Origin: Bdellovibrionales bacterium
GTDB taxonomy: Bacteria; Bdellovibrionota; Bdellovibrionia; Bdellovibrionales; UBA1609
Assembly (NCBI GenBank): GCA_015163875.1
Contig: JAAOIH010000003.1
Location: 10,347-74,346, forward strand
Length of the DNA stretch: 64,000 nucleotides
Direction of reading: 5' to 3'
Shown here: positions 15,660-15,764 of the stretch, piece after piece
Numbering within the stretch: the stretch's first letter is position 1
How the letters are laid out: each line of letters opens with the position of its first letter
Made by a program: the position numbers and the translations under genes
The notes under the pieces: model-generated
Seen by the model: only the letters and a program-made list of their open reading frames with translations
Database searches by the model: none
Told to the model about the DNA's origin: nothing

Positions 15660-15764
15660 TTTAGTTTAGTTTAGTTTAGTTTAGTTTAGTTTAGTTTAGT
15701 TTAGTTTAGTTTAGTTTAGTTTAGTTTAGTTTAGTTTAGTTTATTTTAGTTTATTTTATTTTAT
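15660..15764. repeat. pentanucleotide microsatellite: 16 perfect TTTAG units (15660-15739) plus ~5 degenerate TTTAT/TTTAG units
   Basis: Read directly from the sequence. Lies 37-140 nt upstream of the ATG at 15802. Confidence 0.95.

Follow-up and report, generated by a model that had tools for sequence, protein, structure and literature searches.

The window, i.e., the whole stretch of 64,000 nt analysed here, has a GC content of 29.4% (64 kb) and carries an array of TTTAG units in the spacer between two ORFs that are co-oriented on the plus strand (Table 1). The upstream ORF of 110 aa has no match in Pfam or NCBIfam, and its TAA stop codon directly adjoins a TTGACA box located 5' of the array. 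The downstream ORF encodes a predicted exported protein of 268 aa. Genome-typical codon usage was observed for both ORFs in the annotated frame only.

Upstream of the 110-aa ORF are genes for a sodium:alanine symporter and for a glutamate dehydrogenase with a signal peptide, and rpmI, rplT, and a mevalonate-pathway cluster follow downstream of the 268-aa gene. The dehydrogenase (Glu/Leu/Phe/Val type, Pfam E=4.5e-52) possesses an N-terminal extension of ~80 aa with the signal-peptide-like start MKIFIISCFLVLLVSNFALAASS, which is unusual for a normally cytoplasmic enzyme. The usually contiguous genes thrS-infC-rpmI-rplT are split between infC and rpmI by the symporter gene (minus strand), the glutamate dehydrogenase gene, the 110-aa ORF, the TTTAG array, and the 268-aa gene, as if a segment had been inserted into a conserved operon. 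The mevalonate cluster directly 3' of rplT is composed of an FMN-dependent type-2 IPP isomerase-like gene, the HMG-CoA reductase gene, a 377-aa ORF without Pfam match, and genes for diphosphomevalonate decarboxylase and a GHMP kinase.

Table 1. Features of the window that are referred to in the text, given in window positions.
Feature	Position	Strand	Description
Array before 264-aa ORF	886-933		(AAATAAAATAAGGT)x3.4, perfect
264-aa ORF	935-1729		Lys/Ala-rich; repeats 943-1333
ActE-like cytochrome c gene	7456-8034
12-mer array	8023-8106		(ACAGTGAAGTAA)x7
infC	11280-11975
Interruption of thrS-infC-rpmI-rplT	11976-16760		~4.8 kb
Glutamate dehydrogenase gene	13629-15281
110-aa ORF upstream of array	15301-15633	+	TTG start; codon-usage score 0.25, other frames -0.2 to -1.4
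Left box	15634-15659	+	Perfect -35-like TTGACA (15634-15639), 16 nt, then TAACTT (15656-15661)
Perfect (TTTAG)16 microsatellite	15660-15739	+	Proposed hypermutable core; 80 bp, zero deviations
Degenerate units	15740-15764	+	TTTAT TTTAG TTTAT TTTAT TTTAT, read directly from the sequence
Right box, 37 nt	15765-15801	+	T-CCGTATAC; -10-like TATATAA(A) 15776-15783; AACACAA 15787-15793; AAGGA 15792-15796; 5 nt; ATG
Predicted exported protein gene, 268 aa	15802-16608	+	Coding score; signal-like N-terminus; Gly/Tyr linker; C-terminal domain, ~residues 100-255
rpmI	16761-16949
Mevalonate cluster	17348-22798
Array at 3' end of nusA	34007-34121		(AGAAGAATCTAA)x9.6
13-mer array before rpsO	40012-40063		(AAGATAATGTTTT)x4
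Hexamer tract	45777-45798		TTTAAC

A preliminary description of this DNA had reported a (TTTAG)16 repeat followed by about five degenerate units, and every detail of it matches the sequence. The same applies to the end of the array 37 nt 5' of the ATG at 15802 (15765-15801 = 37 nt) and to the AAGGA ribosome-binding site 3' of the array, which is located 27 nt past its end and 5 nt from the ATG. TRF calls the repeat at 15660-15763 with a period of 5, 20.8 copies, and 96% matches; the strictly periodic run comprises 84 nt (15660-15743), and the entire array accounts for 105 of the 168 nt of the spacer (15634-15801). The 15-mer (TTTAG)3 with at most one mismatch occurs 16 times, exclusively within the array, compared to 0.13 occurrences expected from dinucleotide shuffles. 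In a census of the 64 kb window, no other perfect repeat with a period of 2-9 and more than 3 copies was found. Length and purity of the array are far beyond chance, and it is the sole long short-unit repeat in 64 kb. A simple-sequence repeat of this length and purity can undergo slipped-strand mispairing. Since each of the three frames has a TAG every 15 nt, the array is non-coding.

The last two T of the TAACTT in the left box are at the same time the first bases of the array. TTGACA hexamers are ~3-fold enriched in the intergenic DNA of the window (6 of 19 vs 2.1 expected), and thus the copy at 15634 is plausibly functional; a similar intergenic arrangement of TTGACA, 17 nt, and TAGACT is found on the minus strand at 28196. 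In the right box, the TATATAA element offers a candidate proximal promoter, whose -35 position, TTTATT (15755-15760), falls inside the degenerate units. An imperfect direct repeat extends across the array, with TTGACACAAG in the left box and TTAACACAAG at 15785-15794. A consensus promoter scan of the spacer revealed nothing convincing, and the -10 candidates are imperfect.

Several known types of switches were considered for the spacer and rejected. A structured RNA or riboswitch is ruled out, since no Rfam family matches the spacer and its predicted RNA fold is weaker than that of shuffles (z=+1.1), i.e., the leader is unstructured. A terminator or attenuator is ruled out as well, as no terminator-like site was found in the spacer. 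The array is intergenic (15634-15801) with TAG in three frames, which excludes a frameshift switch. A switch in the -35/-10 spacing is likewise ruled out, because TTGACA lies ~138 nt from the TATA-like element and 33 nt of this distance are outside the repeat, so that no copy number results in a functional 17-bp spacer. Since the array is neither a -35/-10 spacer nor a frameshift switch, a classic ON/OFF mechanism is not evident. Of the phase or amplitude variation suggested in the preliminary description, graded (amplitude) variation is more likely.

The 268-aa protein starts with the hydrophobic signal-like segment MYNFLTIAFLFFLTIIIVSPSGFA, followed by the motifs GGGYYYK and GGGQYYYK (TRF, 27-nt period x2.6, 15984-16057), so that the signal peptide and the GGGYYYK repeat attributed to the downstream product could both be read from the sequence. 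A HMMER search against 1.84 billion representatives yielded 11 homologues with E values from 2.6e-27 to 5.5e-5, and a later profile search added just 2 further family members. Ten of the homologues have a length of ~195-285 aa, N-terminal signal-like segments, and the C-terminal domain in common, and C104, C173, and C233 are invariant in their alignment with the 268-aa protein. A word-indexed protein search with the 268-aa protein returned the self-match only. Neither a significant Pfam match (FtsL_2 with 16.5 bits vs a cutoff of 24.6 bits) nor a match in NCBIfam or to a PDB fold (best E=0.15) was obtained. In the AlphaFold model, a 5-stranded sheet and 3 helices are predicted with a pLDDT of ~90 over residues 130-250, and the Gly/Tyr linker is disordered. 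These sequence-based data indicate that the 268-aa ORF is a real gene belonging to a small uncharacterised family of predicted secreted proteins of ~200 aa with three conserved Cys.

At four loci encoding homologues in other metagenomes (L082, L083, L085, and L086) no repeat is present upstream of the gene, and the array is thus lineage-specific; conserved neighbours were not found around these four loci either. At one of them (L083), a 220-aa three-Cys family member (P0003, 144-806) is followed after 36 nt by a 285-aa ORF (842-1699) equal in length to family member P0004. The family may therefore occur as tandem paralogues elsewhere.

The locus was found in only two runs of one sponge metagenome, SRR11301536 and SRR11301537 (assembly JAAGOD01); X1 and X2 denote the two runs below. 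The sponge is the "TC" demosponge of a hydrothermal vent in the southern Okinawa Trough, from which a Bdellovibrionales bin of ~1.2 Mb was reported (PMC8518922). The source of the window is probably a reduced-genome symbiont of this vent sponge, and the window may plausibly be assigned to the Bdellovibrionales bin. With glutamate dehydrogenase as query, no close genome was found among the GTDB representatives. With identities of no more than 73-80% to many Proteobacteria, Bdellovibrionales, and Myxococcota, EF-Tu does not settle the taxon. The left-flank pattern of the array had no match in the metagenome-contig collection searched. In run X21, from another sponge sample of that study, a 3017-bp contig with a depth of 68 ends in a TTTAG-like array with 4 mismatches in 40 nt compared to the second locus described below (L089 850-889). 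Related arrays may thus occur in symbionts of sister sponges.

Only 9 SNPs (~2.6 per 10 kb) distinguish X1 from X2 over 34 kb. The Logan contigs of both runs were built with k=31 and break in the 84-nt periodic run, so that the copy number is not readable from them. The right-flank contigs are nevertheless informative with regard to the degenerate units. The X1 contig starts at 15715 without mismatch to the window and the X2 contig at 15724 with one mismatch. Because 15754-30 = 15724, this is the start expected with a G instead of a T at base 15744, in which case unit 17 (15740-15744) of X2 would be TTTAG rather than TTTAT; equivalently, 10 nt would have been lost by slippage. The array sequence is polymorphic at unit 17 between these near-identical haplotypes. 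This difference, together with the second TTTAG array with a homologous leader before a lipoprotein gene (see below), lends support to the contingency reading of the preliminary description.

An artefact, either the erroneous fusion of a sponge or other eukaryotic microsatellite to bacterial sequence or a copy number created during assembly, appears highly improbable to us. (TTTAT)n-like 31-mers of other organisms with a depth of 110-330 do overlap the degenerate end, and the array k-mers of X1 connect to two right flanks. In X2, however, only a single left-flank contig and a single right-flank contig terminate in the pure array, and their depths agree (17.1 and 16), so that the two sides were not joined wrongly by the assembler. 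Both flanks are, moreover, coding DNA of the same composition, and the contigs of the study are named k141_, suggesting a 141-mer assembly (inferred for JAAGOD01) and thus words longer than the 105-nt array (PMC8518922).

The second of the two right flanks that follow the array junction k-mer in X1 was recovered as JAAGOD010029132.1 (L089/L090). This locus 2 reads ...AAACTGTAG-(TTTAG)7-TTTAT-CCGATATAGTTATATAACCAACACAATGGAGACGCGT-ATG, and its ATG opens an orphan gene for a lipoprotein of 236 aa, MKHLIFILVSLSLVAC..., with the lipobox LVAC. An exported product is thereby predicted from sequence at both loci, by signal-like N-termini at locus 1 and by the lipobox at locus 2. Locus 2 is compatible with the window genome in depth (13.6 vs 11-18), GC content (32%), codon usage, and tetranucleotide profile, and we infer that loci 1 and 2 are part of one genome. 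The locus-2 leader and the 5' end of its gene (L089 728-848), however, are absent from the X2 contigs, which, like the depth of only ~3 at its left junction, counts against this assignment. Locus 2 is not an allele in which the 268-aa gene has been replaced, as the 4061-bp contig of X1 is unbranched over 15715-19775 and locus 2 has flanks of its own.

At both loci, the distance from the last TTTAT to the ATG is exactly 37 nt. Global alignment of the two 37-nt leaders resulted in a score of 7, compared to -6.4 +/- 3.3 for shuffles (P=0.0002), which also exceeds the scores of the same region of 35 other genes of the window (maximum 4). CCG(A)TATA, TTATATAA, AACACAA, and GGA are common to both leaders. 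The proteins encoded at the two loci are unrelated, and so are the wider left flanks. Within the 30 nt left of the arrays, 15 of 30 positions are identical in an anchored comparison (P=0.0066), with TTG(A/C)CA at equal distance, but due to the depth of only ~3 of the locus-2 left link the similarity of the left boxes is tentative. The aligned -10 position of locus 2 reads AAACTG, and both key T of the TAACTT in the left box are thus lost. The -35 position in the last repeat units is TTTAGT at locus 2 compared to TTTATT at locus 1.

The arrays are flanked by imperfect direct repeats at both loci (TTGACACAAG/TTAACACAAG and AACCAAGAAACTGTAG/AACCAACACAATGGAG), and terminal inverted repeats were not found around the cassette. 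The distal left flank of locus 2 (L089 926-1053, 128 nt, 3' end of an ORF) is also present with 1 mismatch in a 3773-bp contig of X1 and a 2130-bp contig of X2, both with a depth of ~10, which continue with CCGTATATTCTTGCTTACTTTTACCAAGAA. This sequence contains a CCGTATA box after a stop codon and matches the right box of locus 1 in 17 of 30 positions (P ~0.0009), and no array was seen in it. These contigs may either carry a third copy of the cassette that lacks the array or stem from another haplotype. Flanking direct repeats and the third CCGTATA box hint at a duplicated or mobile cassette.

Tandem repeats are also found at several other positions of the window. The 12-mer array is situated between the stop of the ActE-like cytochrome c gene and the gene at 8119, within an alternative complex III operon (ActA-ActD Pfam matches); it is 48 nt (4 units) shorter in X2, and the X1 contigs fragment there. 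The 13-mer array ends 10 nt 5' of the start of rpsO (S15) at 40073, with a TTGACG box upstream at 39950; one unit fewer was observed in the X1 contig than in the window, and the X2 contigs break inside. In case of the TTTAAC hexamer tract, both X1 and X2 are 7 nt (1 + 6) shorter than the window (45775-45783), which is either a variant or an error of the window assembly.

The perfect array before the 264-aa ORF ends 1 nt before the ATG at 935, and since its units carry the Shine-Dalgarno-like AAGGT, the gene seems to draw its ribosome-binding site from the last unit. This ORF consists mostly of KKxxAKK-type repeats with likeness to histone H1-like or DNA-binding low-complexity proteins, and it has no Pfam match; the Logan contigs break there. 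The array at the 3' end of nusA adjoins the infB start and is represented by contigs of 31-42 nt with a depth of 49-75, compared to ~17-23 in the flanks. Contigs of both runs break at this array, which suggests copy-number differences or collapse.

Due to this genome-wide instability of tandem repeats, instability alone is no sign of a selected switch. The contingency reading of the preliminary description is weakened to this extent, as other arrays before housekeeping genes are equally unstable. A neutral origin of the TTTAG array has to be considered, i.e., a hypermutable microsatellite of a repeat-prone, AT-rich reduced genome, with the common flanks derived from a small duplicated or mobile intergenic element. 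We regard this as quite possible, if a little short of an even chance. It is in good agreement with the occurrence of at least four intergenic tandem arrays in 64 kb (886, 8023, 15660, and 40012), with the differences among X1, X2, and the window in the arrays before rpsO and in the respiratory operon, and with the four homologous loci elsewhere that lack the repeat. The direct repeats at both loci are such as an insertion with target duplication would leave, and the contigs with a CCGTATA box and no visible array also fit an element.

For a random insertion, on the other hand, it is unexpected that both known copies keep the same distance of 37 nt to the ATG of an exported-protein gene and include its ribosome-binding site. 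Moreover, an uninterrupted run of 16 copies implies that slippage is ongoing where any change in length necessarily alters the geometry of the promoter or leader. No further cassette copy was found in the 64 kb window, including the regions between convergent genes and other intergenic regions.

The explanation that we prefer, with a confidence that is evenly balanced, is that the TTTAG array constitutes a promoter- or leader-type contingency cassette for the graded expression of exported proteins. The putative cassette would comprise, as a conserved 5' module, the left box with TTGACA, (TTTAG)n, and the 37-nt right box (TATATAA, AACACAA, and ribosome-binding site) in front of the ATG, and it appears to precede at least two unrelated exported-protein genes. 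Replication slippage would add or remove 5-bp units, with neither a frameshift nor the restoration of a 17-bp promoter spacer as the consequence.

Two geometries are conceivable for this cassette. In the first one, the promoter would be proximal, with the TATATAA of the right box as -10 and a -35 position that falls within the last repeat units, and the array length would set the distance between the left box or other upstream DNA and the core promoter, each unit corresponding to about half a helical turn. In the second one, transcription would start at the TTGACA box, and the copy number would change the length of an unstructured AU-rich (UUUAG)n leader. Because the right box is conserved and the -10 of the left box is lost at locus 2, the first geometry is slightly favoured. 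With either geometry, cells of the same lineage would differ heritably and reversibly in the amount of the secreted protein (amplitude variation). Promoter positions, the effect of the copy number on expression, and reversibility are all predicted from the sequence arrangement.

A variant of the second geometry would be a switch at the level of the leader RNA, with transcription starting from TTGACA(15634)-16 nt-TAACTT, a (UUUAG)n 5' leader of ~134 nt, and lower mRNA stability or translation in case of longer arrays, similar to the 5' repeats of hmw and uspA2. The perfect TTGACA directly after the stop codon, the T-A-x-x-x-T hexamer at 16-nt spacing, the analogous arrangement at 28196, and the lack of structure in the leader are consistent with it. 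RNase E preferentially cleaves at RN|WUU, and it is tempting to speculate that AG|UUU in each unit resembles this preference. At locus 2, however, the AAACTG at the aligned -10 has lost the key T positions, and it is the right box that represents the conserved part. Taken together, we consider a leader-RNA switch unlikely.

The layout of the graded cassette resembles known contingency loci in part. As stated in the preliminary description, an exported-protein gene has a long pure non-triplet repeat in its 5' region, and this portion of the classic layout stands. In H. influenzae, heptanucleotide tracts of 13-38 copies situated 69-106 bp upstream of hmw1A and hmw2A are described to modulate the expression level, as opposed to a frameshift switch (PMC2651432). 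Like these tracts, the TTTAG arrays are long pure non-triplet repeats upstream of the start of a secreted or surface protein and occur at two positions with different copy numbers. The hmw-type structure is found at both loci: the 16 copies of locus 1 end 62 nt before the ATG if only the perfect part is counted and 37 nt before it with the degenerate units included, and the corresponding values for the 7 copies of locus 2 are 42 and 37 nt. The unit comprises 5 bp here vs 7 bp in the hmw tracts, the downstream genes are unrelated here in contrast to the paralogous hmw positions, and the organism is an uncultured sponge-associated bacterium instead of a human pathogen.

The surface protein genes nadA of Neisseria meningitidis, with (TAAA)n, and vlhA of Mycoplasma gallisepticum, with (GAA)n, carry their repeats upstream of the core promoter. 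A change in unit number there shifts upstream elements in distance or phase relative to RNA polymerase, and the vlhA genes make up a multi-locus family with one motif. Compared to the 4-bp and 3-bp units of nadA and vlhA, the 5-bp unit corresponds to ~half a turn per step, and, unlike in vlhA, the TTTAG loci known to date number only two and encode non-paralogous proteins. Another system with a close 5' repeat is uspA2, (AGAT)n. Repeats in the promoter spacer of surface-protein genes are known from H. influenzae hif (TA), Bordetella fim (poly-C), Neisseria porA and opc, and Mycoplasma hyorhinis vlp (poly-A). The TTTAG array resembles them as a hypermutable repeat in a putative promoter region. 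Their repeats, however, are located between -35 and -10 (17-bp spacing), whereas 138 nt separate TTGACA from the TATA-like element here.

With neutral VNTR/MLVA loci, e.g., those of Mycoplasma agalactiae, the arrays of the window share the intergenic position, the variation between close strains, and the AT-rich reduced genome. Typical VNTRs have longer units and are impure, unlike a perfect pentanucleotide of 16 copies with a second copy 5' of another gene.

Several loci with one common repeat motif are a hallmark of contingency-locus systems. On a tentative view, which we consider rather doubtful, the TTTAG cassettes would form a small phasome of a Bdellovibrionales-like vent-sponge symbiont with a genome of ~1.2 Mb, in which a module located 37 nt 5' of several unrelated exported-protein and lipoprotein genes would toggle their expression in half-helical-turn steps.

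If the arrays are neutral, they are ordinary VNTRs. The two loci provide PCR-sized markers for the fine-scale typing of symbiont strains. If the cassette tunes exported proteins, a symbiont under fluctuating selection, e.g., by host recognition, phagocytosis, or phage, is suggested, and the two orphan exported proteins point to roles in host or phage interaction. Repeat-driven stochastic variation of surface proteins is textbook knowledge for human-adapted pathogens, e.g., Haemophilus, Neisseria, Moraxella, Mycoplasma, and Campylobacter and, to our knowledge, has hardly been documented in symbionts of marine invertebrates. If the phasome reading is true, the TTTAG cassettes would extend contingency-locus biology beyond pathogens to an invertebrate symbiosis, by means of a portable promoter element.
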